64,000 nt of DNA from contig OZ241892.1 in NCBI GenBank assembly GCA_965203485.1, positions 1,728,001-1,792,000 of the forward strand. Reading direction: 5' to 3'. The DNA comes from Longimicrobiales bacterium. GTDB lineage: Bacteria; Gemmatimonadota; Gemmatimonadetes; Longimicrobiales; Gaopeijiaceae. Made by a program: the position numbers and the translations under genes. The notes beneath the pieces were generated by a model, which was given only the letters and a program-made list of their open reading frames with translations, was not told the origin of the DNA and made no database searches. Shown here one piece after another: positions 1-54,951 of the stretch. Position 1 is the first letter of the stretch. Each line of letters opens with the position of its first letter.

Positions 1-39
1 CCGGGGCGGAGGGTCGCCGGAAACGCGCCGGCGCCACGC

Positions 40-68
40 TGGACAGGCGCCCGGCGAGCACTTATGAT
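40..68 (+). promoter_or_regulatory. Putative sigma70-type promoter for glnA
   Basis: TGGACA (40-45), 17-nt spacer, TATGAT (63-68), about 90 bp upstream of the glnA ATG; an AT-rich hexamer in very GC-rich DNA. Confidence 0.5.
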
Positions 69-160
69 TCGCGCGCTCGGCCGGCGTGCCGAGTCCCGAT
101 CGTGCCGCCCCTGCCTGGGTTCGGCGCACCACCGTTCCCCCCGACCCGAAAGACCACCCG

Positions 161-1570
161 ATGGCAGATCGAGAAGCCGTTTTCAAGGCCGTCCGCGACG
201 AGAAGGTCGAGTTCGTCGACCTTCGCTTCACCGACCCGCGCGGGCGGTGGCACCACGTGACCCTGACACCCGAGGTCTTCGACGAAGACGCGTTCGACGA
301 CGGCGTGATGTTCGACGGTTCGTCCATCAACGGATGGAAGAGCATCGACCAGTCCGACATGGCCCTGTTCCCCGATCCCGCCACGTACGGCATCGATCCG
401 TTCATGGGCGCGCGCACGCTGTACATCGTCTGCGACGTGCACGAGCCGACCACCGGCGAACGCTATTCCCGTTGCCCGCGCTGCACGGCGAAGGACGCGG
501 AGGCGTACCTCAAGTACTCGGGCATCGGCGACACGGCCTACTTCGGCCCCGAGCCCGAGTTCTTCCTGTTCGACGACGTCCGCTTCGGCGTGCACGCGAA
601 CAACACGTTCTTCCACCTCGACGACGGCGAAGGGCCCTACAACACGGGCGCGGCGCTCGCCGAAGGCAACAAGGGGCACCGCCCCCGCACCAAGGGCGGC
701 TACTTTCCGTTGCCTCCCGTCGACTCGGCGCAGGACGTGCGGGGCGACATGCTGACCGCGTTGCGCGCCGCCGGCGTCGGCGTCGAGAAGCATCATCACG
801 AAGTGGCGGCCAGCCAGCACGAACTCGGCATTCGCTTCGAGCCGCTCACCGTGATGGGCGACAAGTTGCAGGTCTACCGGTACGTCGTCCTGAACGTGGC
901 CGCCCGCCACGGCAAGACCGCGACGTTCATGCCGAAGCCCGTCGTGGGAGACAACGGCTCGGGCATGCACACCAACCAGTCCCTCTGGAAGGACGGCGAG
1001 GGCATCTTCTCGGGGGCGGGGTACGCCGACCTCTCGGAAACCGCGCTCCACTACATCGGCGGCATCATGAAGCACGCCCGCGCGATCAACGCCTTCGCCA
1101 ACCCGAGCACCAACAGCTACAAGCGGCTGGTGCCCGGCTTCGAGGCGCCGGTCCTGCTGGCCTACTCCGCGCGCAACCGGTCCGCGTCCTGCCGCATCCC
1201 CCACGTCTCGTCGCCCAAGGCGCGCCGGGTGGAAGTGCGCTTCCCCGACGCCACCGCCAACCCCTACTTGGCGTTCTCGGCCATGCTGATGGCCGGACTG
1301 GACGGCATCGAGAACCGAATCGACCCCGGCCCGCCGATGGACAAGGACCTCTACGCGTTGCCGCCCGAGGAACTCAAGGACATTCCCACCGTCGCGACGT
1401 CGTTGCGCGAGGCGCTGGACGCGCTCGGCGCCGACTCCGAGTTCCTCACCCGGGGCGACGTGTTCACCAAGGACCAGATCGACGCGTACGTCGAACTCAA
1501 GATGGAGGACGTGGTCCGCTTCGAGCAGGCGCCGCACCCGGTGGAGTTCGACATGTACTTCTCTCCTTGA
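161..1570 (+). CDS. glnA: Type I glutamine synthetase (adenylylatable GSI-beta)
   Basis: [62 protein letters not shown]; adenylylation motif [11 protein letters not shown] at 161. Confidence 0.97.
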
Positions 1571-1670
1571 CGGGGACACGACGCTGACCCGGAGCGTTCT
1601 CGCCGCGGCCGCCGGCGCGCCGGGGTTCGGCGACCTGAGGGGGCACCGAGCGGACAACGCCGCAGCGGGC

Positions 1671-4598
1671 ATGGAGCGTCTGCGGAGCGCGGCCGCGCGC
1701 GTGAAGCGCGTCGCGCTCGCAGACGCGCTGGAGTCGGCGGAGGGCCGGGTCTTCTTCTCGTTTCTCTGCGGCAACAGCCCGTATCTGAGCCGCCTGCTGC
1801 TGCGCGATCTCGAATTCACCGAGACGCTGGTCCTCGAGGCGCCGGACGCCGTCGTTGCCGGCATCAAGCAAGAGCTGGAGGCCGCGGATCCAGCAATGCC
1901 GCGCGACGCGCTGATGACGTTCTTGCGCCGGCAGCGGAGCCGGGTCGCCGTGGTCGCGGCCGCCTACGACTGCTTCGGGGTCGCCGACGTGATGGCGTGC
2001 GCCAAGCTGCTCTCCGAGATGGCCGACCACGCGGTGCGCTTGGCGACGACTCACCTGCTGCGCGACCGCGTGGCCCGGGGCGAGCTGGCGTGCAACGCAG
2101 CGGAGGGCGAGACCGAGCCGGGGGACGCGGGCCGGCTCGGCTACTTCGTGCTGGCGATGGGCAAGCACGGCTCGGGCGAACTCAACTACTCCTCGGACAT
2201 CGACCTCATCGTCCTCTACGACCCCGAAGCGGTGCGCTACACGGGCCCCAAGTCGCTCAAGGACTGCTTCGTGCGGGTGACCCGCGATCTGGCCCGCATC
2301 CTCCAGGCGCGGACGGGCGACGGCTACGTGTTCCGCACCGACCTGCGCCTGCGCCCCGACGCGTCCTCGACGCCGCCCGCCATCACGGTGGACTTCGCGG
2401 CCGACTACTACGAGCGGCTCGGGCGCACGTGGGAGCGGGCCGCGATGATCAAGGCGCGGCCCGTGGCGGGCGACCTCGCCGCGGGCGCCGCGTTCCTGAA
2501 GCGGCTGTCTCCGTTCGTGTGGGAGGAGGGTCTCGACTTCACGTCCGTGGAGGAGATCCGCTCGATGAGCCAGCAGATCCACGACTTCCACGGGCACGGC
2601 GCCGTGCGGGCTGCGGGCCACGACGTCAAGCTGGGCCGCGGCGGCATCCGCGAGATCGAGTTCTTCGTTCACATGCACCAGCTCGCCTACGGCGGACGCA
2701 ACCGGCGGCTGCGGGACCCCGGCATCCTCTCGATGCTACAAGTCCTGGAGGACGAGAACCACGTCCTGCCGCGCGAAGCCGCGGACCTGGGCGAGGCGTA
2801 CGTCCTGCTCCGCCGCGTCGAGCACCGGTTGCAGATGGTCAACGACGACCAGACCCAAAAGCTGCCCGAAAGCAACGACGGCATGGAGCACGTCGCCGCC
2901 TTCATGGGCTTGGACTCGGCGGAAGCGCTTGCGAATCTCGTCGAGAGCTCCGCCACCGGCGCGCACGCCATCTACCGCACTCGCTTCAACGTGCCGGAGA
3001 CCGAGCAGGACATCACGGCGGCCGTGCTGGAGGGACCCGAAGGCAGCGAAGAGGCCGTGGCCAGGCTTCAGGCGGCGGGCTTCGAGCGCGCGCTCACGGC
3101 GAGCGAGACGTTCCGCGGATGGGCGGCCGGCGTGCACGCCTCCACGCGCTCCGAGCGGGCGCGCGCCATCGTGCGCGAGATCCTGCACGAGATCATCGCG
3201 GCGCTGGGCAGGACCCCGGATCCGGATCGCGCGCTGACCCGAATGAACCGGTTCCTGCAGGCGTTGCCCGAGGACGTCTCCTTCTTCTCGATGCTGCGCG
3301 CCAACACGTGGCTGCTGAACTTGATCGCGGTCGTGATGGGCGGCGCACCGCGCATCGCCGACGCCCTGGGCGCCAACCCGAGGCTGCTCCAGGCCGTGCT
3401 CGACCCCGCCTTCTTCCTGACGATGCCCGACAAGGCCGCGCTGGCCGAGGAACTGGCCGAGCGCCTGGAGGGCGTGGACGACCCGGAGGACCGGCTCGCG
3501 CGCACCTCGAGCTGGGCGAGCGACCGCCGCTTCCAAGCCGGCGTGCAGACCCTCCAGAACTTGGTCACCGTGGACGAGGCGTCCGAAGCCCTGACCGACA
3601 TCGCCGACGTGGCCACGTCCACCATCTTCGCCGACGTGCTCTCGGCGCTGGAGCGCGAGCACGGCACGGTGCCCGGCAAGGGGTGCGCCGTGCTGGGCCT
3701 GGGCAAGCTGGGCGCCCGCGAGATGACCTTCGAGTCCGACCTGGACCTGATCTTCTTCGCCGACGTCCCGGACGAGAGTCTGATGTCGTCCGGCCCGCGC
3801 CCCATCGAAGCCAAACGCTACTACGCGCGCGCCGCCCAGCAGGTAATTGCCGCCCTGCAGAGCCGCTCCGCCGCTTCTGGCAAGCTCTACGAGGTCGACA
3901 TGCGGCTTCGTCCGTCCGGCAAGAGCGGACCGCTGGTGACGACGCTGGACGCGTTTCGGATCTACCACGAGGGCCTCGCCGACACGTGGGAGGAGATGTC
4001 GCTGACGCGCTCGAGGATCGTTTGCGGCACGCCGGGCGCCCGCGACGCCGTGGCCGAGCAGATCGAAGCCGTCTTGACGCGCCCACGGGACGCCGCCGAA
4101 CTCCGCCGGGACGTCGCCCGAATGCGCGAGCGCGTGGCCGCGGAGTACCCCTCGGACGATCCGTTCGAGGTGAAGTACGTGCGCGGCGGCTTGGTGGACT
4201 TGGAGTTCGTCGCGCAGTATCTTCAGCTGTTGCACGCCCACGCGCGTCCCGCGGTCCTCGTCGCCGGAACGGCCAAGTGCTTCGAAGCGCTGGAGGAGGC
4301 GGGCGTGTTGCCGCGGCGCGAAGCGGACGTTGCGGGATCGGACGCCACGCAGAACAACGCCGGGGCCGAGGCCGGATTGCTCGCCGAGGCAGTCCGCTTC
4401 CAGCGCGCGGTCCAGGCGCTGTTGCGACTGGCGTGGAGCGAAAGCGCCCCGGTCGGCGCCGCGCCGGAGACGTTGCAGAGGAAGCTGGCCAATGCGCTCG
4501 AACACGATACCTTCGAAGAGCTGGACGCGCGGTTGCGCGACGTGCAGGCGAAGGCGTTCGACAGGTTTCGCGCCCATCTCGGCGCCGGCGCGGCCTAG
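1671..4598 (+). CDS. glnE: Bifunctional GS adenylyltransferase / adenylyl-removing enzyme
   Basis: Two nucleotidyltransferase domains (MGKHGSGELNYSSDIDL...DLRLRP and LGKLGAREMTFESDLDL...DMRLRPSG), KLGRGGIREIEF, KYVRGGLVDLEF. The frame is open upstream to a CTG at 1584, so the start is uncertain. Confidence 0.95.
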   Translation: MERLRSAAARVKRVALADALESAEGRVFFSFLCGNSPYLSRLLLRDLEFTETLVLEAPDAVVAGIKQELEAADPAMPRDALMTFLRRQRSRVAVVAAAYDCFGVADVMACAKLLSEMADHAVRLATTHLLRDRVARGELACNAAEGETEPGDAGRLGYFVLAMGKHGSGELNYSSDIDLIVLYDPEAVRYTGPKSLKDCFVRVTRDLARILQARTGDGYVFRTDLRLRPDASSTPPAITVDFAADYYERLGRTWERAAMIKARPVAGDLAAGAAFLKRLSPFVWEEGLDFTSVEEIRSMSQQIHDFHGHGAVRAAGHDVKLGRGGIREIEFFVHMHQLAYGGRNRRLRDPGILSMLQVLEDENHVLPREAADLGEAYVLLRRVEHRLQMVNDDQTQKLPESNDGMEHVAAFMGLDSAEALANLVESSATGAHAIYRTRFNVPETEQDITAAVLEGPEGSEEAVARLQAAGFERALTASETFRGWAAGVHASTRSERARAIVREILHEIIAALGRTPDPDRALTRMNRFLQALPEDVSFFSMLRANTWLLNLIAVVMGGAPRIADALGANPRLLQAVLDPAFFLTMPDKAALAEELAERLEGVDDPEDRLARTSSWASDRRFQAGVQTLQNLVTVDEASEALTDIADVATSTIFADVLSALEREHGTVPGKGCAVLGLGKLGAREMTFESDLDLIFFADVPDESLMSSGPRPIEAKRYYARAAQQVIAALQSRSAASGKLYEVDMRLRPSGKSGPLVTTLDAFRIYHEGLADTWEEMSLTRSRIVCGTPGARDAVAEQIEAVLTRPRDAAELRRDVARMRERVAAEYPSDDPFEVKYVRGGLVDLEFVAQYLQLLHAHARPAVLVAGTAKCFEALEEAGVLPRREADVAGSDATQNNAGAEAGLLAEAVRFQRAVQALLRLAWSESAPVGAAPETLQRKLANALEHDTFEELDARLRDVQAKAFDRFRAHLGAGAA

Positions 4599-4636
4599 CT
4601 CCGCCCGCAGCGCGCGTCGAGCGGCCCCGGCCTAGG

Positions 4637-5083
4637 ATGGACGCTTCGCTCGAGGTAAGCGTAAAGGCCAGCTCCTCGGAGCCACGGCGGGTGGCGGAGC
4701 TGTTCGAGCGCTTCGGCGAAGAGCACGATGTTCCTCCGCCGGTCCTGATGCGCATGGAACTCGCGCTCGACGAAGTGCTGACCAACGTCGTCAGCTACGC
4801 GTTCCCCGGGGACGCCGGAGACGCCGCCATCACGGTGGCCATGCAGATCCGCGAGGGTCGCGTTACAATATGCGTCGAAGACAACGGACCGCCCTTCGAC
4901 CCGCTCACGGAGGCGCCCGAGCCGGACGTGGACCTGCCGGCCGAGGAACGCGAGATCGGCGGACTCGGCGTGCACCTTGCCAAGACGTTCGTCCAGACAT
5001 TGCGCTACGAGCGCGTGGACGGGCGCAATCGCCTCACCCTAGAACAGCCCCTGGACGGCCAACCGGAGAACCCTACCTCATGA
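4637..5083 (+). CDS. RsbW-like anti-sigma factor / Ser kinase (HATPase_c_2)
   Basis: ELALDEVLTNVVSYA (N box), EDNGPPFDP, GGLGVHL; its stop overlaps the STAS start (ATGA). Confidence 0.88.
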   Translation: MDASLEVSVKASSSEPRRVAELFERFGEEHDVPPPVLMRMELALDEVLTNVVSYAFPGDAGDAAITVAMQIREGRVTICVEDNGPPFDPLTEAPEPDVDLPAEEREIGGLGVHLAKTFVQTLRYERVDGRNRLTLEQPLDGQPENPTS

Positions 5084-5415
5084 AAGTCACGACGAGCACC
5101 AGTGGAACCGCGACCGTCGCCGCAGTAGAGGGCCGCGTCGATTCCGCCAACGCCAAGGACCTGGACCAGGAACTCGGCGCCATCATCGATTCGGGCGAAA
5201 GCCGCCTGGTCGTGGACTGCAGCGACCTCAGGTACATCAGCAGCGCCGGGCTCCGCGCGCTCCTCGTGGCAATCAAGCGGACCAACAAGGAAGGCGGCGG
5301 CGTCGCCATGTGCCAAGTGCCCGACCACATCCGCGAGGTCCTCGAGGTGAGCGGCTTCACCCGTCTCACGAAGGTCTTCGGCACGATAGAGGAAGCCGCC
5401 GCCAGCTTCGACTGA
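5080..5415 (+). CDS. STAS-domain anti-sigma factor antagonist (RsbV/SpoIIAA-like)
   Basis: GRVDS, DCSDLRYISSAGLR with the phosphoacceptor Ser, EVSGF; 111 aa. Confidence 0.9.
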   Translation: MKVTTSTSGTATVAAVEGRVDSANAKDLDQELGAIIDSGESRLVVDCSDLRYISSAGLRALLVAIKRTNKEGGGVAMCQVPDHIREVLEVSGFTRLTKVFGTIEEAAASFD

Positions 5416-5633
5416 CCCGGGACCCGGGGGCGAGGCGGAATCCCGGAGATCCCCCGTCGCCCCCTCGCCGGTGCAATCCCGGCTTTGACGGCGGGGTCCG
5501 CCACCTGCCCGCGCGTGCCTCCCGGTGCGCAAGCAATGCGACAGCCGACGCTCGCCGCGTGGTCTCGGCCGCCTGCGGTGGTCCGGCCGCCTGCAAGAGT
5601 CGGCCGGCCGCAACGCGCCGGGACGGACTAGAA

Positions 5634-6707
5634 CTAGAAGAACATGAACGCCTGGACCTTGAAGGACCACTCCGTCGTGTCTTCGATGGTGCGGTAAAGG
5701 TCCATGTTGGCCGCAATTCCGTTCCATCCGGCCAAGTAGACCATGAAACCGGGAGTGAAGACCATGCCGCTGGCGTCTTCGCCGTCCCCGTCCTCGGTGC
5801 TGGCCCAGCTCACGCGCAACAGGGGCTCGACCGCGTCCACGCGGCTGCCGGCGAGCGGAAGATGCCAAGCGCCCATGGCCTGGAACGCCGTGAAGGCCGC
5901 GTCCTCGGCGACCCTCCAGTTGCGGCCGCGCAACAGGTTCACGAGCAGATGGGGCCCGGCCTGCCGCCATCCGCCGGACTCGAACTCCAGCCCGGTCGCC
6001 GGCAGCCAGCAGGTCTCCCCGTCCTCGCAGTGGGTCTCGTCCATGGCGGCGTACGCGGAGAACCGGCTTTTTTCGCCCAGGAACACGGAGACGCGGCCCG
6101 ACGCCGACTTCTCGTTGTTGACGTCCTTCTTGCCGATGCCCTCTCCGTTGGTCAGCGTCATCCGGTAGCCCAAGCGTCCGCCGTCGGCGCCGCCGAACCG
6201 GCCGGTGGCCAGCAGGCCGGGCTCGTAGGCGTCGAGGCCCAGCGAGCCGGTCATCTGCCCGAACGAGCACACTCCTCCGACGCCCGGGCACTCGTTCACG
6301 CCGGTGACCCGCCCGTCCCGCTCGATCACGGGCAACTGCGAGTTGGCGGCCAGCCAGAAGTACGACATCGCGCGCTTGAACTGGCCGATCTGCACCTGGA
6401 ACGCGCGCGAAGGCGAGAGCTGCAGCCACGCTTCCAACACGTTGGAGCCCTGCGCGTCGAACTGCACGCGGCCGGACACCAAGTCGTTGAGCCGCCCGTC
6501 CATCGTCACCCAGGCCCGCCGGATGAAGAACGACGACGCCACGTCGTCGCGGCCGGTTTGCTCGTACTGCACCTGGACCCTGCCGCCGAGCGTGACGGTG
6601 GAGCCGTTGCGCGCGGAGATGTCCTGCGCCTCCAGCGAACCGGCGAACCCGGCGGCAACCGCCGCTCCCAGTCCAAAGGCGAGCCTGCCAAGCCGGCTCG
6701 ATGTCAT
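5634..6707 (-). CDS. Outer-membrane porin, OprO/OprP-like
   Basis: Signal peptide, LGGRVQ, FFIRRAW, QIGQFK, alternating beta strands, C-terminal Phe. Confidence 0.7.
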   Translation of the reverse strand: MTSSRLGRLAFGLGAAVAAGFAGSLEAQDISARNGSTVTLGGRVQVQYEQTGRDDVASSFFIRRAWVTMDGRLNDLVSGRVQFDAQGSNVLEAWLQLSPSRAFQVQIGQFKRAMSYFWLAANSQLPVIERDGRVTGVNECPGVGGVCSFGQMTGSLGLDAYEPGLLATGRFGGADGGRLGYRMTLTNGEGIGKKDVNNEKSASGRVSVFLGEKSRFSAYAAMDETHCEDGETCWLPATGLEFESGGWRQAGPHLLVNLLRGRNWRVAEDAAFTAFQAMGAWHLPLAGSRVDAVEPLLRVSWASTEDGDGEDASGMVFTPGFMVYLAGWNGIAANMDLYRTIEDTTEWSFKVQAFMFF

Positions 6708-6886
6708 GTGAGTGCTCCGTTGTTGCGAGAAGCGGTGTCGGCGCGACCCCGCCGGTTCCGGCGCGCTGCGGGGCGCGACGAGACGCCCGTCTTGCGACGG
6801 CCCGAGAGATCACTACCTTGTCTCCCGGCATCCGTCACGTGGCGGCAAGGCTCACCTTCACAGCGGGACGCGGGGAGACCATCGGA

Positions 6887-8287
6887 ATGACAGGCAACCT
6901 AGCGAGCAAGGCGGCGTTCGGCAACGCCGTCCGCGGACGAACCATCCTAGCCCTTCTCTTCGGCGGGGCGGCGCTGCTCTTCCCGGCCGCCCTCGGGGCC
7001 CAGGACGAGACCAGTTTCGTGCTCAACACGTTCTCGTTCCTGGTGTGGGGCGCGCTCGTGATGTGGATGTGCGCCGGCTTCACGATGCTGGAGTCCGGAT
7101 CGGTGCGTTCCAAGAACGCCTCGATGATCTGCATGAAGAACATCGGGCTCTACTCGATCGCGGGCATCGCCTACTACGTGATCGGATACAACCTGATGTA
7201 CGTGGACGTGTCGGGCTTCATCGGCTCGTTCAGCATCTTCTACGGCCCCTCGCCGGCCGAGACGGCCCTGGTGGCCGGCGACGCGGCCGCCACTGCCGAC
7301 GTGACCGGCAACGGCTACGCCGTCATGTCCGATTGGTTCTTCCAGATGGTGTTCGTGGCGACGACCGCGTCGATCGTGTCCGGCGCGTTGGCGGAGCGCG
7401 TGCGCCTTTGGTCGTTCTTCGCCTTCACCGCCCTGCTCACCGCGGCCATCTATCCCGTCGTGGGGGCGTGGACGTGGGGCGGAGGCTGGCTCGCCGAGCG
7501 GGGCTTCAGCGACTTCGCCGGCTCGACGATCGTCCATTCCACGGGCGGATGGGCGGCCCTGGCGGGCATCCTGGTCGTCGGACCGCGCTGGGGGAAGTTT
7601 CGCAAGGACGGGAGCGTCCAGCCCACGCCGCCCTCCAACATTCCGGCGGTCACGCTGGGCGTCTTCATCCTGTGGCTGGGCTGGTTCGCGTTCAACGGCG
7701 GATCGGTCCTCGCGCTGGGCGACGCCGCCTCCGCCGTCAACATGAGCAACGTGATCGTGAACACGAACTTGGCGGCGGCCGCAGGCGTGCTCGCCGCGTT
7801 GCTCGTGTCGCGGCCGATTCTCGGCCGGCTCGATCTGTTCGCCGGCTTGAACGGCGCCATTGCCGGCTTGGTGTCGATCACGGCCGGCCCCGACATCGGC
7901 TCGGGCTGGCGCGCGATGCTGATCGGCGCGGCGGGCGCGATCATCTGCACGTTCGGCCTCAAGTTCCTGGAGAGCAGGAAGCTGGACGACGTGGTCGGGG
8001 CCGTGCCCGCGCACCTCTTCGCGGGCGTTTGGGGCACCATCGCGGTCTGCTTCGGCGGCGACGCCGACTTCGTGGAGCAACTGATCGGCGTCGCGGCCGT
8101 GGGCGCGTTCGTGTTCTTCGTGTCGTGGCTCGTGTGGATTGGACTGGACCGGGTGATCGGCGTGCGCGTCGGCCGCAAGATCGAGGAGATCGGGCAGGAC
8201 GCGGCCGAGCTGGGGATCGACGCGTATCCGGAGTTCGTCCTCATGGTCGACCCGGACGAGGGGAGCGACTACCGCGACGCGGACTGA
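6887..8287 (+). CDS. amtB: Ammonium transporter (Amt family)
   Basis: AGFTMLESG, FFQMVF, GALAER, DFAGSTIVH, LWLGWFAFNGGS, NGAIAGLV, DDVVGAVPAH (twin His). Confidence 0.95.
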   Translation: MTGNLASKAAFGNAVRGRTILALLFGGAALLFPAALGAQDETSFVLNTFSFLVWGALVMWMCAGFTMLESGSVRSKNASMICMKNIGLYSIAGIAYYVIGYNLMYVDVSGFIGSFSIFYGPSPAETALVAGDAAATADVTGNGYAVMSDWFFQMVFVATTASIVSGALAERVRLWSFFAFTALLTAAIYPVVGAWTWGGGWLAERGFSDFAGSTIVHSTGGWAALAGILVVGPRWGKFRKDGSVQPTPPSNIPAVTLGVFILWLGWFAFNGGSVLALGDAASAVNMSNVIVNTNLAAAAGVLAALLVSRPILGRLDLFAGLNGAIAGLVSITAGPDIGSGWRAMLIGAAGAIICTFGLKFLESRKLDDVVGAVPAHLFAGVWGTIAVCFGGDADFVEQLIGVAAVGAFVFFVSWLVWIGLDRVIGVRVGRKIEEIGQDAAELGIDAYPEFVLMVDPDEGSDYRDAD

Positions 8288-8324
8288 GGCACCCGGCGTT
8301 CCCCTCGCCGGAGCCCGGCCGGGC

Positions 8325-9833
8325 ATGGCCGCGCCGACGCCTCCCGTCGCAGGATCGGGGTCGTTCGCGGGCTACGAGCTGGACGCGGCCTTCCACGACG
8401 AGCTCTTCGAGCCCGGCGGGGAGGCGCGTCCGGCCGCGCGTCTGCTCGCCGAGGCCCTGGCGAAGGCGGAGCCGTCCGAACTCCGCATGGTGCAGGACCT
8501 GGTCAACCGGCGCTTCCTGCACGAAGGTATCACCTTCACCGTGCTGGGCGCGGACGAAGTCAGCGAGCAGATCATCCCGATCGACTGCGTGCCGCGCGTG
8601 CTCGCCGCCGACGAATGGGCGTTGGTCGAACGCGGCCTCAAGCAGCGCCTGCGGGCGCTCAACCTGTTCCTGGAGGACATCTACCACCGGGGCCAGTCGA
8701 TTCGCGACAAGGTGGTGCCCGCCGACTTGGCGCTGGGCTGCCCGCAGTACCGGACGGAGATGCGGGGGCTCAAGGTGCCTCACGGCGTGTACGTCGCGGT
8801 GTGCGGGACCGACGTCGTGCGGACGCCGGACGGATTCGCGGTTCTGGAGGACAATCTGCGGGTGCCGTCGGGCGTGTCCTACATGTTGGCTTGCCGCACG
8901 GCCATGAAGGGGGCGTTCCCCGGGCTCTACAGGGAGCACGGGGTGCGCGAGGTGGCCGAGTACCCGGAGCGGCTGCACGCGACGCTGTCGTCGCTGGGGA
9001 TGTCGGGCGAAGAACCGCGGATCGCGCTACTCACGCCCGGGCGCTACAACTCCGCCTACTACGAGCACGCGTTCCTGGCCGGCGAGACCGGAATCGACCT
9101 CGTCGAGGGACGCGACCTGGTGGTGCGCGACGGCGTCCTGTACGCGCGCGCCGTCTCGGGACTGCAGCGGATCGACATCCTCTACCGCCGAATCGACGAC
9201 GACTTCCTGGACCCCGTCGTCTTCCGCCCCGATTCGCTGCTGGGCGTCCCCGGCCTGTTCCACGCCTACCGGGCGGGCAACTTGACGCTGGCCAACGCGC
9301 CCGGCACGGGGGTGGCGGACGACAAGAGCATCTACGCCTGCGTGCCCAGCATCATCCGCTACTTCCTGGACGAGGAGCCCATCCTCCACAACGTGGAGAC
9401 GCACCTGTGCCGCGAGCCCGGCGCGTTGTCCTATGCGCTGAACAACATGGACGAGCTGGTCTTCAAGGAGGTGGGCGGCTCGGGCGGCTACGGGATGCTG
9501 ATCGGGCCGCACGCGTCCAAGCAGGAGAGGTCCGACTACGCCGACCGCGTGCGGGCCGACCCGGCGAACTTCATAGCGCAACCCGTGCTTGCGCTGTCGC
9601 GCGCCGGCTGCTTCGTGGACGGACGCATCGAGCCCAGGCACGTGGATCTTCGGCCGTTCGTGTTGCAGGGACGCCGCGACCTGCACGTCGTGCCCGGCGG
9701 GCTTTGCCGGGTCGCGCTGCGGCGCGGCAGCCTCGTGGTGAACTCCAGCCAGGGCGGCGGATGCAAGGACCTGTGGGTGCTGGCCGGGCGGGATCCAGGC
9801 GGCGCGGCGGCCGAGCGATGCTCGCGACCGTAG
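8325..9833 (+). CDS. Circularly permuted type 2 ATP-grasp ligase
   Basis: VLEDNLRVPSGVSY, LLTPGRYNSAYYEH, YRRIDDDFLDP, NAPGTGVADDK, RHVDLRPF, VVNSSQGGGCKD. Confidence 0.92.
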   Translation: MAAPTPPVAGSGSFAGYELDAAFHDELFEPGGEARPAARLLAEALAKAEPSELRMVQDLVNRRFLHEGITFTVLGADEVSEQIIPIDCVPRVLAADEWALVERGLKQRLRALNLFLEDIYHRGQSIRDKVVPADLALGCPQYRTEMRGLKVPHGVYVAVCGTDVVRTPDGFAVLEDNLRVPSGVSYMLACRTAMKGAFPGLYREHGVREVAEYPERLHATLSSLGMSGEEPRIALLTPGRYNSAYYEHAFLAGETGIDLVEGRDLVVRDGVLYARAVSGLQRIDILYRRIDDDFLDPVVFRPDSLLGVPGLFHAYRAGNLTLANAPGTGVADDKSIYACVPSIIRYFLDEEPILHNVETHLCREPGALSYALNNMDELVFKEVGGSGGYGMLIGPHASKQERSDYADRVRADPANFIAQPVLALSRAGCFVDGRIEPRHVDLRPFVLQGRRDLHVVPGGLCRVALRRGSLVVNSSQGGGCKDLWVLAGRDPGGAAAERCSRP

Positions 9834-10792
9834 CCGCCGACTTCTACTGGCTCGGCCGTTACGCCGAACGCGCCGAGCAGACGGCCCGGTTGCTGCGCCA
9901 CCAGCTCACGCGGCTTCCCGACACGCCGGCCGTCGAGCTGGCGGAGGGCTGGCGGGCCGTCTACCGAAGCCTCGGCCAGGCCGCGCCCGACGCGCCCAGA
10001 GGCGCCGACGAGGCCGAGGCGTTCCTGCAGGCCGACGCCTACACGCTGGCCGGCGGCCTGATGGAGGAGGCGGCCAATCCGGGATCGGTGCTGGCGTGCT
10101 GGGGCGCGGCACGCGAGAACGGCCGACGCGTGCGCCCGCACCTGCCGCTTCGGATGTGGACGAGCCTCAACCAAGGGTTCTTGTGGTTGCAGGACAGCGA
10201 CTTCGCCAAGGCTTGGGCGGGGGCGCCGGCCGCATTGGCCAGCGAGGCGATCGACCGCTTGCGGTTCTTCGCGGGCGTGGTCGAGGCGATGATGCCCCGC
10301 GACCACGCGTGGCGCTTCCTGGAGCTCGGTCGCTTCGTCGAGCGGCTGCAGCGGCAAGTGGCGTTGCTGGACACGTGGAGGGGAGGCGGAGAGCCGCAGG
10401 GCGCGGCTCGGCTGGCGTGGACGGACCTGTTGCGCGTGTGCGGCGCCTACGAATTCTTCTGCCGCACGCACTCGATGACCGCCGACCGGGACGCCGCCCT
10501 CGCCTTTCTCGTGCGCAACCCCGCGCTTCCGCGATCGCTGCGCTTCGCTGTTCAGCGCATCGGAGCCCTGCTGGACGGCATCGATCCCGGCGGCGGGCAG
10601 TACCCGCTGGCCGCGCCGCACCGCGCGACGCTGCGCATCGGAGCCGCATTGGAGGTCGCAACGGGCGGCGGCGACGGACAACCCGAGTGGGAGTCGGTCC
10701 TTCGGTCGCTGGCCGGCCAGAGCCAAGCGCTTCACGACCTCGTGATCGCAACGTACGTGGACTACTCGGCCGCCGGGGGGGCTCCGTCGTGA
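9818..10792 (+). CDS. Alpha-E domain protein (DUF403)
   Basis: FYWLGRYAERAE..ARLL, ARENGRRVR, FLELGRFVER, LPRSLRF; overlaps the ATP-grasp stop. Confidence 0.88.
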   Translation: MLATVAADFYWLGRYAERAEQTARLLRHQLTRLPDTPAVELAEGWRAVYRSLGQAAPDAPRGADEAEAFLQADAYTLAGGLMEEAANPGSVLACWGAARENGRRVRPHLPLRMWTSLNQGFLWLQDSDFAKAWAGAPAALASEAIDRLRFFAGVVEAMMPRDHAWRFLELGRFVERLQRQVALLDTWRGGGEPQGAARLAWTDLLRVCGAYEFFCRTHSMTADRDAALAFLVRNPALPRSLRFAVQRIGALLDGIDPGGGQYPLAAPHRATLRIGAALEVATGGGDGQPEWESVLRSLAGQSQALHDLVIATYVDYSAAGGAPS

Positions 10793-11688
10793 CCGTCCGC
10801 TACTCGATCGAGCACGTGATGGAGTTCCGTTACAGCGCACCCGTTCATCTCTCCGTGATGACGCTCCACCTGCGCCCGGCGCAGAACCGGCGCCAAGTCC
10901 TGCGCGACTTCTCGATCGACACCGACCCCACCGGGCCGCTGTTCGCGTTCGTGGACCCGTTCGGCAACGCCGGCCACTTCTTCGACCGGCCCGCCGAGCA
11001 CGACGCCCTGCTGGTCAAGGCGCGCTCCCGGGTGGACGCGGTCGCCGCCGAGCCGGTGCCGTCCCGGCTGGGGACCGGCTCCTGGCCGGCGCTGAGGCAC
11101 GCCGCTCGCGACCCGGACCTTTGGCCCATGCTCAGTGCGAGCCGCTTCGCGCGGCCGTCGCCGACGCTTCACGGCTTCCTGGAGGCCCGGAAGCTCGCGC
11201 CCGCGGACGATCCGCTGGCGACGGCTCACGAACTCTGCTCCAAGCTGCACTCGGCGTTCGAGTACGCCCCCGGCGCCACCGACGCGCACTCTCCCATCGA
11301 GCGGATCCTGGAGAGCGGCCGGGGCGTGTGCCAGGACTACGCGCACGTCATGGCCGCGGTCGCGCGGCTGTGGGGGATTCCTTGCCGCTACGTGTCCGGC
11401 TACCTGGGTCCGCCTGCGGGAGACGCATGCCGAAGGGAGGGCGTCGCCAGCGGCGAGAGCCACGCCTGGGTGGAATGCTGGTTCCCGGAGCTGGGATGGA
11501 CGGCCTTCGATCCCACCAACGACGCCGTGGGCGACGAGCGGCACCTTCGCGTGGCGGTGGGCCGGGACTACGCCGACGTGCCTCCGGCAAGGGGCACCTA
11601 CCGGGGTACGGCCGAGTCGGCGCTGAAGACGGACGTCTCCGTGTCGCGGCACCTCTGGGACCCGGCCCGAGATCACGGCGCCGACTGA
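10789..11688 (+). CDS. Transglutaminase-family protein (Bact_transglu_N + core)
   Basis: YSIEH..FRY, DPFGN, catalytic triad GVCQDYAH / SHAWVE / FDPTN, VGRDYADVPP; GTGA overlap. Confidence 0.92.
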   Translation: MTVRYSIEHVMEFRYSAPVHLSVMTLHLRPAQNRRQVLRDFSIDTDPTGPLFAFVDPFGNAGHFFDRPAEHDALLVKARSRVDAVAAEPVPSRLGTGSWPALRHAARDPDLWPMLSASRFARPSPTLHGFLEARKLAPADDPLATAHELCSKLHSAFEYAPGATDAHSPIERILESGRGVCQDYAHVMAAVARLWGIPCRYVSGYLGPPAGDACRREGVASGESHAWVECWFPELGWTAFDPTNDAVGDERHLRVAVGRDYADVPPARGTYRGTAESALKTDVSVSRHLWDPARDHGAD

Positions 11689-11809
11689 ACGGAACAACGC
11701 CGCCGGCCTGGCGAGGCTCTTCGCGCCGGCCTGTTGATTCGGCGCCTGCGACGGCACCATATTTGGATGTTCGCGCCAACGCAACCCGACACCTCCCAAG
11801 GAAGCACCA

Positions 11810-12526
11810 GTGACCAGACTCGCCATGCGCACCGTCTTGTTCTCGTCCGTCGCCGCCTCGACGGTCTTCGCCGCCTCGCCTGCCCAAGCCCAGGTCTCGA
11901 TGGGCGCCGACATCGTCAGCCGTTACGTCTGGCGTGGGCTCGACTTCGGCGACTCCTGGTCGATTCAGCCGTCGGTCGCCTTCGCGGGCGGCGGCTTCGA
12001 GGTGGGAGCATGGGCGTCCTACGGCGTGCAGGGCATGAACGAGAACGACCTCTATCTCACCTACACCGCTCAAACGGAGTCGGGGGCCGCCTTCACGCTC
12101 GGACTGAACGACTACTACTTCCCCACGGCCATCGACAGTCCCAAGTTCTTCGACGGCGACTCGCACGCGATCGAGCCCTTCGCGTCGTTCAGCGGGCCCG
12201 AGGGCTTTCCGGTCGAACTGCTCGTGGCGGTGGCGTACAACCCGCCCCCGGCCTCGGACACTCTGGGCAGCCGCGAGAACGTCGGCTACATCGAGTTCGC
12301 AGTTCCGTTTTCGAGGGGAGGCGCGGATCTGTCCGTGCACGTCGGCGGCGTCACGAACGGAAGCCGCTTGTACTCGACAAGCGGCGCCGGAATCACCAAC
12401 CTCGGCTTGTCGGCGACCAAGGCGATCGGAACGGGCGACTGGACTGTTCCGACGACCTTGAGCTACGTCCTCAATCCGGACTCGGAACAGTCGTTTCTCG
12501 TCTTCGGCGTCAGTCTGTCGCCATAG
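11810..12526 (+). CDS. TorF/Gcw_chp-like putative porin
   Basis: Signal peptide (AQA), DIVSRYVWRG, SIQP, VGAWAS, ENDLY, DYYFP; alternative ATG at 11825. Confidence 0.7.
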   Translation: MTRLAMRTVLFSSVAASTVFAASPAQAQVSMGADIVSRYVWRGLDFGDSWSIQPSVAFAGGGFEVGAWASYGVQGMNENDLYLTYTAQTESGAAFTLGLNDYYFPTAIDSPKFFDGDSHAIEPFASFSGPEGFPVELLVAVAYNPPPASDTLGSRENVGYIEFAVPFSRGGADLSVHVGGVTNGSRLYSTSGAGITNLGLSATKAIGTGDWTVPTTLSYVLNPDSEQSFLVFGVSLSP

Positions 12527-12555
12527 GCGGGCCGACGGACCAAGACGAGCGGCTA

Positions 12556-12629
12556 TCGGGGCGCCCGGATTCGAACCGGGGACCTCCTGCTCCCAAAGCA
12601 GGCGCGCTGCCGGACTGCGCCACGCCCCG
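12556..12629 (-). tRNA. tRNA-Pro (anticodon TGG), CCA not encoded
   Basis: Minus strand CGGGGCG...CCTGC-TT-TGG-GA-GCAGG...CCCGG-TTCGAAT-CCGGG-CGCCCCG-A folds into a cloverleaf. Confidence 0.95.
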
Positions 12630-12979
12630 CCCGCAACCGTCGCCGTCTAGTGTCGCGGATCGGACTCCGGCGCGGTAGGCCTCTCGCTCAAGACCGTCCC
12701 GGCGAGGGCGGCCGGACGCGGTGGACGCCGCCGCATGCTCGGCGCCTCCTCGGCGAGGCTGGACGCGGTTCCCCGGCACGAACGGCCCCGGCGCGGCCCG
12801 GCGCGCGCGCTTCCGGGCGACTTGGCGCGGCCTGCCGGGCCGGCGCGACTCCCGGCGGGCTGGGCGCGGCGGGTTGCCCGGCCGGCCAGGACGACGCGCG
12901 AACCGGCGCGGGAGCAACCCGCGACGCCGGACGGCGCACGGCAGGTTGTTCGATCCGTTTGGGCGGCGCCGGGCGGCGC

Positions 12980-15003
12980 ATGGCGGACTGCCTGCTCTTG
13001 GCCGGGGTGGCGATGGTGGGCCTCGGCGGTTGGGCAGGCGACGGGCGCGCGCGCGCTTTCCCGGCCGGCGAGGCGGAGCCGCCGACGCACATGCCCGAGC
13101 GGCTCGACGGCAGGGGGGGGCGGCGAAGGAGGAAGGCCGGGGCCGACAGGCGCCACGTCCGGACGAGCGGGCCGGGGCCCCCATGCAGGCGACCTCGGCG
13201 GCCGAGGACACGTTGGCCGCGCGGCTGGCGCCGGTCTCCTTTCGCCTGCTGACCGCCGAGCCCGGCGACGCGCTGTGGGAACTCTTCGGCCACAACGCGC
13301 TGCTCGTGCGGGATTCGCTCTCGGGGCGGGAAACCGCGTTCAACTTCGGCATCTTCGACTTCTCCGCCCCGGGGTTCGCCGCCCGCTTCGCGCGCGGGCA
13401 GATGACGTACTGGGCTGACACCGTCCCGCTGGCGGCAATGCTGGAGCGCTATCGCGGGCAGAACCGGCGCGTATGGGCGCAGGAGCTCGAGCTGGAACCA
13501 CGGCAGAAGGCCAGGCTCTTGTCGTTGCTCGCCGCGGCCGTCCAGCCGGACAGCCGCTACTATCGCTACGACTACTTCCGCCAGAACTGCTCGACCAAGC
13601 TGAGGGACGCGCTCGACGCGGCCCTCGGCGGACAGATTAGGGAGACCACCGACTCCGCGCCCGGAGGCGGCACGTGGAGAACCCACACCCGCCGGCTCAC
13701 TGCCCGCAACGTGGTCGGCTACCTGGGCATTCAACTGATGGCCGGGCCGCGCAGCGACGAAGCCACGACGGCGTGGCAGGACATGTGGGTTCCGATGAAG
13801 CTGCGCGACACGCTGGCCGGGTTGCGCGTGGCCGGGAGCGACGGGGTCCTGGCGCCGCTGGTGCGGGCCGAGGAACTCTTGGCTGGATCCGACCGGACGC
13901 CCGAGCCCGCGGCGGCCCCGCCGCTGACGACGGTCTTCTTCCTGAGCGGCACGGCCGGCGGACTGCTTCTCGTCGTCTTGGCGCACTGGGCCGCGGGCCG
14001 CAGCCGGCTGGGGGTCGCGGCGTTCGGGGGCGCCGGAGCCCTCTGGGGGCTGTCTTGCGGAGTGGTTTCCCTGACTCTGGCAGCGATGCACTGGACCGAT
14101 CACGAGTTCCTGTACATGAACCGCAACATCCTCGTCTTCAGCCCGGTCGGCTTGGCACTGGCCGTTCTGTTCCCCGTGGTTGCGGTCCGGACGTCCGCCG
14201 GGCCGAAGGCGGCGGTGGTGGCCGCGGTCGCGGCGGCGCCTGCGCTGGCGGCGCTGGTCTTGTGGGCCGCTCCGGGGGTGGGGCAGGACAACTTGGAGTG
14301 GATCGCGTTCGCCGTACCCGTCCACGTCGGCGCGTGGTGGTCGCTGGCCCGCGTTCCCAGAGTCCACGGACTACCGGTTGGCCACCACGCGGGCGTCTCG
14401 CGACGCGACCAGTTGGGGCGAGGCGGCGAAGCCGCGAAAGACCTCCGGCGACCCGGACTGAAGGCGCCTCGCCGTCGCCGGTCGCAAGGGGGCGCGGCCG
14501 ATCCCGCCGCGCGGCGCTGCGCCGATCGGCGGCCGGTTCGACGAGGCGGCAACCGGCGCGCGACGCCCTACGCCGCCGGCCGTTCCGGGCGGGGCCGGTC
14601 GCCGAAGCGCCTCGCCCCCGCCAAGTTCGAAGGGCGGCGCTGTTTCCGGAGGACGCCACAGCCCTGGCGCGCCGACCCGGCGGCGGAGGGTCGACAGGTG
14701 GTTTGCGCGACGGGCGCTACGCGGGGGCGGCGCGGCGGAGGCGCTCCGCCAGGGCGCGAAATGCCTTGCCTCGGTGGCTGCGCTCGTTCTTTGCCGCCGG
14801 CGCGAGTTCTGCGAACGAGAGAGCCGAGCCGACGCCGGCAAATACGGGATCGTAGCCGAATCCGCCGACGCCTCGCGGCGAAGGCAGGATGCGGCCCGGG
14901 GCCTCGCCGCGAAAGCGCCGGAGGACGTCCGTCTCGGGATCGTAGAAAGTTGCCACGCACACGTACCGGGCGCCGCGCCGCGAAAGGGGCACATCCGCCA
15001 TGA
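12980..15003 (+). CDS. DUF4105 (Lnb-like) membrane protein, apparently frameshifted at G8 (13113-13120); alternative in-frame ATG at 13183
   Basis: ELFGHNAL, FNFGIFDF, YRYDYFRQNCST, followed by about 4 TM helices; a signal-like N-terminus (ATG 12980) is in a different frame; long low-complexity C-tail. Confidence 0.7.
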
Positions 15004-16154: not shown

Positions 16155-17858
16155 TCAGAACAGCTGGAAGAGAAGGAACGCGGCGAGCATGATCGCGACC
16201 CAGAGCACCATGCTGCCTGCCGGCCAGCTGCGCGCGAGCGGGCCGTGCGGCGCGTGCGCGCGAAACGCCGCCCGATACAACGGCGTCGTCACGGCGGCCG
16301 CGGTGTCGCGCAACGCCAGGCCGGCCCGCGCCGCAACGTCGCCGGCACGACGCGCGGCGCGGGCGCCGGCCCGCCGGTACAGCCAGTCCGCGTCCAGGTT
16401 GGTCGCCGGGATTTCGGCGGGATAGATCTTCCAGATCTGGAAGACGGCCACTGCGCATATGGCGAACGCGAGCAGTTGCAGCTGCGTCAGGACATGGCTC
16501 GCGTCGTAGGGGCTGTAGTCCACGTCGTGGGGCAGCAAGCCGTACAGGAGTTCGGGCCAGACTCCAATCGTCACGCAACCGGCGGCGCCGATCGACATCG
16601 CAGCGATCATGTTCCACGGCGGCTCGCGGGTGCGGATTCCCGAGTCGTGCGCGAAGAAGGCGAAGAAAGGAATCTTGATGCCCGCGTGCTCCACGACCCC
16701 GGCGGAGGCGAAGAGCATTACCGGCCAGATCCACGCGTGGCCCTCGTAGACGAGCGCCGACATGATCATCGACTTCGAGACGAAGCCGTTGAAGAGCGGC
16801 ACCGCCGAGATCGACAGAGCCCCGACGATGCAGAGCGCGGCAGTCACGGGCATGGTCTTGTAGAGCCCGCCGAGTTCGGACGCCTTGGTCTTGCCGGTCA
16901 TGTGCATGACCGCGCCCATCGCCATGAACAGCAGTCCCTTGAAGAGGACGTCGTTGAAGGCGTGCGCGACGGCGCCGTTGACGGCAAGAGCGGTGCCGAC
17001 GCCGATGCCGCACACCATGAATCCGATCTGGTTGATCATCGAATACGCAAGCGTTCGCCGCAGATCGTTCTCGATGACCGCGTAGAAGATCGGAAAGCAC
17101 GCCATCGCGGCCCCCACGTAGACCAGCGGCTCCGTGCCGGCAAACCCGCGTGCGAGCGCGTACACCGCGACCTTGGTCGTGAAAGCGCTCAGGAAGACCG
17201 TGCCCGTCGGCGTGCCTTCGGGGTAGGCGTCGATCAGCCAGCCGTGCAGAAGAGGAAACGCGGCCTTGACGCCGATCGCAAGGAAGATCAGCCAGCCCGC
17301 CAGGCCATCCAGTCCGATGCGTCCGAACGACAGGTCGCCCGTCTCGGCGACGCGCGCGAGCGCCCCGGCCAGCAGGGCCACGCCCGACACGACCTGCACG
17401 ATCAAGTAGCGCATCCCCGCCCGCGCCGGGCGGGCCCCCGGTCTGGACCACACGAGAAAGACCGAGCTGACCGCCAGCAGCTCCCAGAACACGAAGAGCG
17501 AAATGAAGTCGCCCGCGAAGACGGCGCCGAGCGCGCTCCCTGCGTACACGAGCGCGGACACGTGCTGCAACGTGGCGTTGTCGCCCTTGCCGAGGTGCAG
17601 CGAGTAGACGACCGCGATGAAGGCGGCCAAGTGAAAGAGATAGCCGAACAGCAGGCTCAGTTCGTCGGCGCGAACCGGCTGAAGGACATAGCCCATCAAC
17701 TCCAGTTGCCACTGGTAGCCCGTCTCCAGGCCCGCGACGTTGACCGCGCCGGCCACCGGCACCAAGACGAGCAGAACCTTGCGCGCCGCCCCGCGCGTCG
17801 CCGCCGCCAGCGCCGCCCCGACGAAGAAGATCAGGAAGGGAGGCACGCTACTCGTCAT
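16155..17858 (-). CDS. Na+/H+ antiporter subunit D-like (MrpD/MrpA-N family)
   Basis: FVFWELL, PLLHGWLIDAYPE, FTTK, LAYSMINQIG, HAFNDVLFKGLL, NGFVSK. Confidence 0.88.
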   Translation of the reverse strand: MTSSVPPFLIFFVGAALAAATRGAARKVLLVLVPVAGAVNVAGLETGYQWQLELMGYVLQPVRADELSLLFGYLFHLAAFIAVVYSLHLGKGDNATLQHVSALVYAGSALGAVFAGDFISLFVFWELLAVSSVFLVWSRPGARPARAGMRYLIVQVVSGVALLAGALARVAETGDLSFGRIGLDGLAGWLIFLAIGVKAAFPLLHGWLIDAYPEGTPTGTVFLSAFTTKVAVYALARGFAGTEPLVYVGAAMACFPIFYAVIENDLRRTLAYSMINQIGFMVCGIGVGTALAVNGAVAHAFNDVLFKGLLFMAMGAVMHMTGKTKASELGGLYKTMPVTAALCIVGALSISAVPLFNGFVSKSMIMSALVYEGHAWIWPVMLFASAGVVEHAGIKIPFFAFFAHDSGIRTREPPWNMIAAMSIGAAGCVTIGVWPELLYGLLPHDVDYSPYDASHVLTQLQLLAFAICAVAVFQIWKIYPAEIPATNLDADWLYRRAGARAARRAGDVAARAGLALRDTAAAVTTPLYRAAFRAHAPHGPLARSWPAGSMVLWVAIMLAAFLLFQLF

Positions 17859-18102
17859 CGTAGTAGTCCTCGCGCCGCATCACCAAGCGCCGCAGACCCT
17901 TGGACGCCATGATCAGGCCGACGATGCCCACGAAGCCGTAGAGAGGATGGAAGAGCCAGTACTCTTCCAGCGGATGGTGCTTTCCGTGGGGGCTCACGAA
18001 GTAGCCGCCCACGGCCAAGGCCGCGCACAGCCCGAAGAACACGCGCAGGATCGCCTTGGCCCATCGCGGAGGGACGCTGTTCGGGCGGTGGCCGTCGTTC
18101 AC
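17848..18102 (-). CDS. Small 2-TM Mrp-operon accessory protein
   Basis: 84 aa, two hydrophobic segments, ends LVMRREDYYD; overlaps the next start. Confidence 0.7.
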   Translation of the reverse strand: MNDGHRPNSVPPRWAKAILRVFFGLCAALAVGGYFVSPHGKHHPLEEYWLFHPLYGFVGIVGLIMASKGLRRLVMRREDYYDDE

Positions 18103-18109
18103 GCGTCCC

Positions 18110-27560: not shown

Positions 27561-27657
27561 TGGCGGGGGCGTGTGGGAATCGAACCCACCCACCCGGGTC
27601 TTAGCCAGGCGCACTGGTTTTGAAGACCAGACGGAACACCAGTCCCGATCCGCCCCC
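27561..27657 (-). tRNA. selC: tRNA-Sec (anticodon TCA)
   Basis: 97 nt: 8-position acceptor stem GGGGGCGG/ACGCCCCC, 6-bp D stem with TGGT loop, CTGGT-CT-TCA-AA-ACCAG, long variable arm, GTGGG-TTCGATT-CCCAC, G-CCA. Confidence 0.93.
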
Positions 27658-37870: not shown

Positions 37871-37890
37871 CCCCGCCTCAGCCGCCGCCG

Positions 37891-54860: not shown

Positions 54861-54951
54861 GAGGGAGCTCGCGCCACGGGAGAACCCCCGATCGCCCCTT
54901 CGCACGGTTGCTTCCCGAGCATAGTCCTGTCGCACGGGGAACACCAAAGAT

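Follow-up and report, generated by a model that had tools for sequence, protein, structure and literature searches.

How is glutamine synthetase (GS) controlled in a bacterium that keeps the two-domain GS adenylyl-removase/adenylyltransferase GlnE and lacks PII? The question is raised by a locus at the left end of a 64,000-nucleotide stretch of a Longimicrobiales genome (hereafter the window, G000:C1:1728001-1792000 in a 3.56-Mb genome that forms one contig and is 95% complete). Here glnA and glnE are followed by genes for an RsbW-like serine kinase, a STAS protein, a Porin O/P-like protein on the opposite strand, the transporter Amt, a circularly permuted (CP) ATP-grasp ligase, an Alpha-E protein, a transglutaminase-like protein and a TorF-like putative porin. 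These ten genes had been named in an original prediction made from the window alone, and their coordinates, strands and order are borne out by the list of open reading frames (ORFs) and by family scans (Table 1). We find the locus to be a nitrogen module that is real, conserved and shared horizontally; it consists of known parts in an arrangement that we did not find described, and its partner switch likely has a nitrogen output.

A nitrogen locus without PII

The GS of the locus scores above the cut-off of TIGR00653 and carries the adenylylation-loop tyrosine at residue 398, as expected of an adenylylatable type I enzyme. The GlnE encoded next to it has all 15 key residues in each of its two domains, that is, both active sites are intact; a structural model of the protein (mean predicted local distance difference test score, pLDDT, 84.6; predicted template modelling score, pTM, 0.60) has strong matches solely to the E. 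coli GlnE domains 1v4a (N-terminal) and 3k7d (C-terminal). The absence of glnK/glnB and glnD, which the original prediction had noted within the window, holds genome-wide: on the single contig there is no match to PII, with a model that matched 13 of 14 control genomes, and none to GlnD, so that neither gene on which a PII-regulated GS cascade depends is encoded. PII was not found in either of the two same-genus genomes. Of the three strong matches to sigma-54 activators, two were scanned, and both fall short of the NtrC cut-off.

Glutamate synthase (GOGAT) also has no match on the contig, with a model that matched 14 of 14 control genomes. A second GS, of type III, and a large NAD-dependent glutamate dehydrogenase (GDH) are encoded elsewhere in the genome, and the locus is therefore not the only route to glutamine; because the large GDH is present and GOGAT has no match, glutamate probably comes from imported amino acids or from GDH. 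To call the locus self-contained was thus an overstatement, since the type III GS sits elsewhere and GOGAT is missing; the block itself also runs past the window.

A partner switch around glnA and glnE

The block reaches about 4.8 kb to the left of the window, where three minus-strand genes, divergent from glnA and conserved in the syntenic loci, encode a receiver-SpoIIE/PP2C phosphatase, a Peripla_BP_6 binding protein and a TorS-like histidine kinase. A PP2C phosphatase, a GHKL serine kinase and a STAS protein with a conserved serine, the parts by which a partner switch is recognized, are thus encoded together. Judged from sequence, the left-edge genes, the RsbW-like kinase and the STAS protein make up a complete partner switch with sensory input, and glnA-glnE lies in its middle. 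The switch that had been proposed from the window is therefore fuller than it appeared there, its phosphatase and its sensory input being encoded outside.

Relatives of the binding protein (52-55%) adjoin chemoreceptors in all three annotated regions read, in keeping with a part in sensing. Among solved structures, those nearest to it are putative binders of the Leu/Ile/Val type, and the names given in the Atlas are generic only. Phosphatase orthologues of at least 52% were found in 28 of 33 genomes examined out of the 43 GlnE-clade carriers described below.

A GlnE clade shared by four phyla

Scanning GTDB with the window GlnE gave 43 loci: 8 in Longimicrobiales, 15 in Spirochaetia, 15 in gammaproteobacteria and 5 in a Latescibacterota group, in which three genomes bear that label and two are labelled Gemmatimonadaceae and were grouped there by the GlnE tree. 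The window GlnE belongs to a single clade common to these four phyla (46 window-like GlnEs, FastTree support 100; the underlying GlnE alignments exclude locus L036 and include the database protein P0102 instead). Going by their names, the carrier taxa are, we presume, characteristic of the microbiomes of marine animals.

The 8 other Longimicrobiales genomes carry the block in large part or completely, so its gene order is not a matter of chance: four loci are whole, a contig end truncates another, one lacks the ligase triad, one is rearranged and one has the genes from amt to torF displaced. The arrangement is thus not unique to this genome, a result that would have counted against the original prediction had it been otherwise. 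PII is absent from all 8 of these genomes and present in all 35 other carriers of the GlnE clade, which supports the non-PII control that had been suggested for the window; the 8 genomes are kin, and their loss of PII therefore counts as about one event. In the displaced locus (L219:3-9143, genome G189), a 3047-residue cadherin-repeat protein is inserted between porin and amt.

Among the PII-bearing carriers, a GlnE family search covered 30 of 35 (five Spirochaetia were left out), and all 30 carry two GlnE genes, a window-like one beside a native one. Native copies extracted from 12 genomes fall outside the window-like clade. Going by the coordinates, each of the 15 Spirochaetia and Latescibacterota-group genomes has its native glnE no more than about 1 kb from a PII gene, and in no case among the 30 does the window-like glnE adjoin PII.

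Gene orders around the STAS clade

In 9 of the 15 gammaproteobacterial loci, glnE is followed at 7-97 bp by the STAS gene, which has no rsbW adjoining; among the others, one has a 2.3-kb insert between glnE and the STAS gene, one has the STAS gene elsewhere and four are without the STAS clade. The STAS proteins of the gammaproteobacterial glnE loci, of Longimicrobiales and of the Latescibacterota group form one clade of 34 rows with support 99, 11 of which had been assigned to it by identity beforehand (tree of 131 sequences and 110 columns). Ser55 is invariant in all 23 aligned clade members, and the gammaproteobacterial STAS copies that stand beside a phosphatase fall outside the clade.

In the Latescibacterota group, the order rsbW-STAS-amt-ligase-alphaE-transglutaminase is found in 5 of 5 genomes, with the phosphatase 22-25 kb from the STAS gene in the three long assemblies. 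The STAS gene thus adjoins both classic partners of PII, following glnE in gammaproteobacteria and preceding amt in the Latescibacterota group, and in one genome (G067) it follows glnA. More widely, the ligase triad co-travels with amt, and the Porin O/P gene with the signalling core across loci. At L059:2280-9162 (G072), two tandem type ISP restriction-modification genes separate the ligase-alphaE pair from the signalling genes.

When metagenomes were scanned with the STAS alignment, 3 of 80 loci among the matches listed fell in the clade, and in none of these 3 does glnA or glnE lie between phosphatase and rsbW. In a sample of 81 genomes from the gammaproteobacterial family, the STAS clade was found at high score in only 2, both among the carriers already known.

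GlnE catalytic sites

We scored 46 GlnE sequences at 15 key residues per domain. The 16 GlnEs with their own glnA in the same locus, that of the window included, keep 15 of 15 in both domains. In the 28 without glnA in the locus, the N-terminal domain keeps 15 of 15 in every row; the C-terminal domain keeps 4-8 of 15 in the 15 gammaproteobacterial rows, the first catalytic aspartate being lost in all, and 9-14 in the 13 Spirochaetia rows. Because the C-terminal domain is the adenylylating one (according to the PDB title of the matched structure and the available part of PMC9249168), the second GlnE of the gammaproteobacteria is predicted to be an enzyme that only removes adenosine monophosphate (AMP). 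Loci L037-L046, L048, L050, L051 and L034 have such a second GlnE, its N-terminal site intact and its C-terminal site degenerate, and their genomes encode a native GlnE besides.

Two further genomes, G309 and G337, lack any type I GS match and encode, ahead of rsbW-STAS, a GlnE of full length whose sites are both degenerate, keeping 10-11 and 7-8 of 15 key residues. The decay of GlnE catalysis upon loss of GS speaks for GS as its substrate. Under neutral drift, about 14 and 9 stops would be expected in these two frames, on a rough estimate, and none is observed.

Distribution of the STAS clade in the family

In a sample of 201 genomes of the family, the STAS clade occurs in 35, belonging to 7 of 66 genera, two-domain GlnE in 11 and a glnA of the window type in 9. 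The 11 genomes with GlnE all belong to the 35 with the STAS clade; the 96 with PII include none of them. Ligase homologues of 48-65% are present in 14 of the 166 genomes without the STAS clade. Within genus g60 a series of losses can be followed at the same site, from a dead full-length glnE (two genomes) through a 71-residue remnant (one) to nothing (nine).

Weak GlnE matches in genera g6 and g60 were considered as hidden enzymes of the window type; the two that were scanned (L252:3917-6397 and L251:3376-5481, in G299 and G334) are instead a fatty-acid-desaturase-like domain fused to a degenerate GlnE-like domain. These fusions adjoin genes with nitrile-hydratase-like leader segments, and similar weak matches occur in other g6 and g60 genomes. 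In G266, a fragmentary GlnE match lies at a contig edge.

Promoters and structure prediction

The sigma-70-like site upstream of glnA is the only one of its kind in positions 1-13000, and a matching site occurs in 7 of 15 glnA upstream regions versus 1.9% of shuffles. A looser pattern before amt is found in 11 of 25 amt upstream regions versus 0.9% of shuffles, a comparison to be read with the pattern having been picked post hoc. Neither a sigma-54 pattern nor a motif shared by the different gene classes of the loci was found, and both a sigma-54 promoter and a shared alternative one were set aside on that ground. Riboswitch control was rejected as well, Rfam giving only tRNA and tmRNA in five loci and in positions 1-13500 of the window. 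Taken together, housekeeping-like promoters with neither a riboswitch nor an alternative motif favour control after translation, although a sigma factor encoded elsewhere may still be involved.

In a prediction of the complex between GlnE (residues 22-909) and the STAS protein, the score was 0.44 (runs 0.59, 0.44 and 0.41) versus 0.00 for the best of three controls, a weak pass; the runs share at least 92% of contacts, and the pLDDT of the partner is at least 85. The mark applied is reached by 116 of 157 solved complexes and by 2 of 215 mismatches, yet a pass at 0.60 or below comprises only 18 of the 157 solved complexes and both mismatches. No GlnE-STAS complex is among the PDB matches listed. 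The modelled complex may accordingly be taken as a small push in favour of a guess made earlier from gene order.

Features of the block and the window

The features of the block are collected in Table 1. The gene taken to be a TorF-like porin is present as described; its membership of TIGR02001 did not stand, the score lying below the cut-off. The rsbW-like stop codon overlaps the STAS start (5083 vs 5080), and no glnK adjoins amt. The twin-His and Phe-gate motifs are present in Amt, and we take them to have their usual roles there.

Table 1. Features of the nitrogen locus and related genes (positions in the window unless a contig or locus identifier is given)
Feature	Position	Strand	Remarks
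TorS-like HAMP histidine kinase	G000:C1:1723182-1725482 (start approximate)	-	TorS-like periplasmic region
Peripla_BP_6 binding protein	G000:C1:1725482-1726690 (start approximate)	-	no ABC permease adjoining
Receiver-SpoIIE/PP2C phosphatase	G000:C1:1726678-1727832	-	just left of the window
Divergent intergenic region, right part	1..160	.	faces the minus-strand signalling genes left of the window
Sigma-70-like glnA promoter	40..68	+	10/12 consensus bases, 17-bp spacer
glnA, type I glutamine synthetase	161..1570	+	TIGR00653 above cut-off
glnE, two-domain GS adenylyl-removase/adenylyltransferase	1671..4598	+	NF010706, 889 bits vs cut-off 724
RsbW/SpoIIAB-like serine kinase (HATPase_c_2)	4637..5083	+	family scan
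STAS anti-anti-sigma-like protein	5080..5415	+	TIGR00377 above cut-off
Porin O/P-like outer-membrane protein	5634..6707	-	PF07396, E 7e-6, above cut-off
Possible housekeeping-type amt promoter	6792..6819	+	looser pattern, chosen after inspecting sequences
Amt, marine subtype	6887..8287	+	TIGR03644, 519.6 vs 514 bits, above cut-off
CP-ATP-grasp ligase	8325..9833	+	family scan
Alpha-E protein	9818..10792	+	family scan
Transglutaminase-like protein	10789..11688	+	Cys, His and Asp motifs present
TorF-like putative porin	11810..12526	+	TIGR02001, 37.5 bits, below 47.15 cut-off
tRNA-Pro(TGG)	12556..12629	-	right edge of block; found in 2 related loci as well
Degenerate full-length GlnE, genomes without type I GS	L206:6628-9672, L208:6273-9347		two genomes
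GlnE remnant	L211:10958-11170		third genome

The GC content of the block (0.68-0.71; third-position GC 0.81-0.93) is close to that of its surroundings, so composition gives no sign of recent arrival, and a recent island is unlikely on this ground. Among those listed, the best matches in a plasmid collection are alphaproteobacterial for both GS (64-66%) and GlnE (about 40%).

Elsewhere in the window, a tRNA-SeC gene lies at 27561-27657, and segments 36001-38000 and 54001-58000 have a lower GC content (0.55-0.62 vs about 0.70) and are possibly acquired DNA. A run of minus-strand membrane-protein genes, paralogues among them, occupies 16155-21045; these genes presumably resemble an Mrp/NuoL-type antiporter cluster.

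Discussion

The explanation we prefer, which we hold tentatively and at somewhat less than an even chance, is that the STAS protein of the switch acts as a stand-in for PII, binding GlnE and possibly Amt, and so sets GS activity in a genome without PII. By analogy with known switches, the Peripla_BP_6 protein would bind a ligand in the periplasm (probably an amino acid or a similar compound); the TorS-like kinase would then alter the phosphorylation of the receiver-PP2C phosphatase, and this phosphatase and the RsbW-like kinase would between them set the state of Ser55 in STAS. One form of STAS, as the modelled complex weakly suggests, might bind GlnE and shift it between AMP addition to GS and AMP removal from it. 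Amt may be a second target, mirroring the two classic partners of PII. In genomes where the second GlnE stands beside a PII-linked native enzyme, its predicted output would be a signal-driven reactivation of GS, because it keeps the AMP-removing site only.

A more far-reaching version, which we regard as on the unlikely side, is that a phosphorylated STAS protein takes over the function of PII. An extracellular signal would pass through a two-component system and the partner switch to a dedicated GlnE subfamily and to Amt, in a module spread over four phyla that would be the sole GS control in the PII-less Longimicrobiales and an AMP-removing-only override where the canonical cascade is kept.

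Several observations weigh against a STAS protein that takes the place of PII at GlnE. The main one, which bears on a role confined to GlnE, is that 24 of the 35 STAS genomes in the family sample have no full GlnE, so that GlnE cannot be the sole target of STAS. In genus g60, glnE is lost in 10 of 12 genomes, the one with the remnant included, and the open frame of the dead GlnE could serve only to avoid polarity on rsbW-STAS. PII is present in 10 of the 35 STAS genomes. Among the GlnE-clade carriers, 4 of 15 gammaproteobacteria and all 15 Spirochaetia are without the STAS clade, their best matches being at 33-42%; amt or the ligase lies within 20 kb in only 3 of 11 phosphatase regions of other phyla; and the linkage of the genes may reflect a single transferred island. 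Amt, unlike GlnE, is kept in 34 of the 35 STAS genomes, and a ligase orthologue (at least 69%) in 30 of the 35 versus 0 of the 166 others. GlnE itself needs no PII in Streptomyces and in Herbaspirillum is a direct sensor of glutamine, according to the available part of one preprint (bioRxiv 10.64898/2026.09.02.748916).

The counts for Amt and the ligase, and this published direct sensing of glutamine, are what one would expect if the switch were a nitrogen switch whose STAS protein targets Amt or the ATP-grasp ligase in the place of GlnK, with GlnE as a passenger under the direct control of glutamine or 2-oxoglutarate. The constant rsbW-STAS-amt-triad order of the Latescibacterota group points the same way, as does the PII of genus g6, which, where present, adjoins a different amtB. 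We nevertheless hold this reading, with GlnE as a passenger, to be unlikely; it leaves the two-gene glnE-STAS unit of 9 of 15 gammaproteobacterial loci unexplained. Targeting of Amt or the ligase is compatible with STAS as a stand-in for PII at GlnE if STAS has two targets, as PII does.

It would be improbable, in our estimate, for these genes to be neighbours by history alone, on one horizontally transferred island whose switch controls something unrelated to nitrogen. Consistent with such an island, the signalling core and the porin are the most constant parts, and it is glnA, glnE, amt and the triad that come, go or change place; in 8 of the 11 phosphatase regions of other phyla there is no nitrogen gene within 20 kb; and the carriers are not independent samples. 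After rearrangement, however, the switch genes still adjoin a nitrogen gene, and they do so in several different orders: glnE-STAS, rsbW-STAS-amt, glnA-STAS with glnE-rsbW-amt, ligase-alphaE-rsbW-STAS and kinase-amt.

The account that fares worst, and an improbable one, is that of a canonical RsbU/V/W-type switch whose RsbW-like protein holds a sigma factor, encoded elsewhere, that transcribes the nitrogen genes instead of NtrBC: by family the parts correspond to RsbU, RsbV and RsbW, 17 sigma-70 region-2 matches were counted in the genome, neither of the two scanned activators passes the NtrC cut-off, and the available part of one report ties a canonical switch to nitrogen-dependent differentiation in cyanobacteria (PMC13712970), but no sigma gene was seen among the ORFs listed for the loci read, the three RpoD-sized sigma factors that were scanned among the 17 matches are far below the SigB/F/G cut-off (TIGR02980), glnA has a conserved housekeeping-like promoter and no shared alternative promoter motif was found.

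The control of GlnE is, according to the available part of the same preprint, not conserved across Bacteria in its mechanism (bioRxiv 10.64898/2026.09.02.748916). The locus offers a concrete candidate for a GlnE regulator, testable with five soluble proteins, and a second GlnE subfamily that keeps the AMP-removing site only, beside the native enzyme. A literature search of titles and abstract openings, which largely did not cover subscription journals, gave no link of STAS to GlnE or Amt and no description of an AMP-removing-only GlnE paralogue. If our preferred explanation is true, the locus would represent an outside-in route to GS control and a new output for partner switches, and the second GlnE would be a natural counterpart of the one-way adenylylating GlnE alleles engineered for ammonia excretion (described in the available part of PMC9249168).

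Comparison with known systems

The locus resembles the PII/GlnD/GlnE cascade of E. coli and other Proteobacteria in its type I GS with an adenylylation tyrosine and its two-domain GlnE. It differs in having neither PII nor GlnD, and its GlnE belongs to a clade apart, which is not beside PII in 30 of 30 genomes and is often beside a STAS gene. With the RsbU/RsbV/RsbW and SpoIIE/SpoIIAA/SpoIIAB switches it shares the PP2C phosphatase, the GHKL serine kinase and the STAS protein with a conserved serine; here, however, no sigma factor is seen at the locus, the neighbours are nitrogen enzymes and a channel, and the input to a receiver-fused phosphatase comes from a TorS-like kinase together with a binding protein.

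The first three genes of the ATP-grasp/alpha-E/transglutaminase/Anbu operon are found here in the same order. On either side of the triad lie amt and the TorF-like porin gene, the latter standing where Anbu would be the fourth gene. A coupling of the locus to reversible protein (poly)glutamylation or nitrogen storage, as suggested in the original prediction, found no support here and is a conjecture. The sole PF00227 match of the genome is about 100 kb away from the triad and is HslV-like, as marked by an N-terminal pattern that we take to be diagnostic. In the available part of one article, the Anbu of such operons is reported to be highly expressed under nitrogen starvation, and the hypotheses on their function are said to await confirmation (PMC6376114).

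SiaABCD of Pseudomonas aeruginosa and HenR/All4160 of Anabaena resemble the switch proposed here in that the output is an enzyme rather than a sigma factor (SiaABC, PMC7647112; All4160, bioRxiv 10.64898/2026.04.08.717354; see also PMC8457831; each in its available part); the output itself differs and would here be GlnE or Amt. Finally, the PII-independent nitrogen response of SAR11 is alike in combining GS and Amt without GlnB, GlnD, GlnK or NtrBC; riboswitches are proposed there, and 'GlnE' is not named in the available part of that paper (PMC3870248), whereas in the present genome GlnE is kept and no Rfam riboswitch was found.

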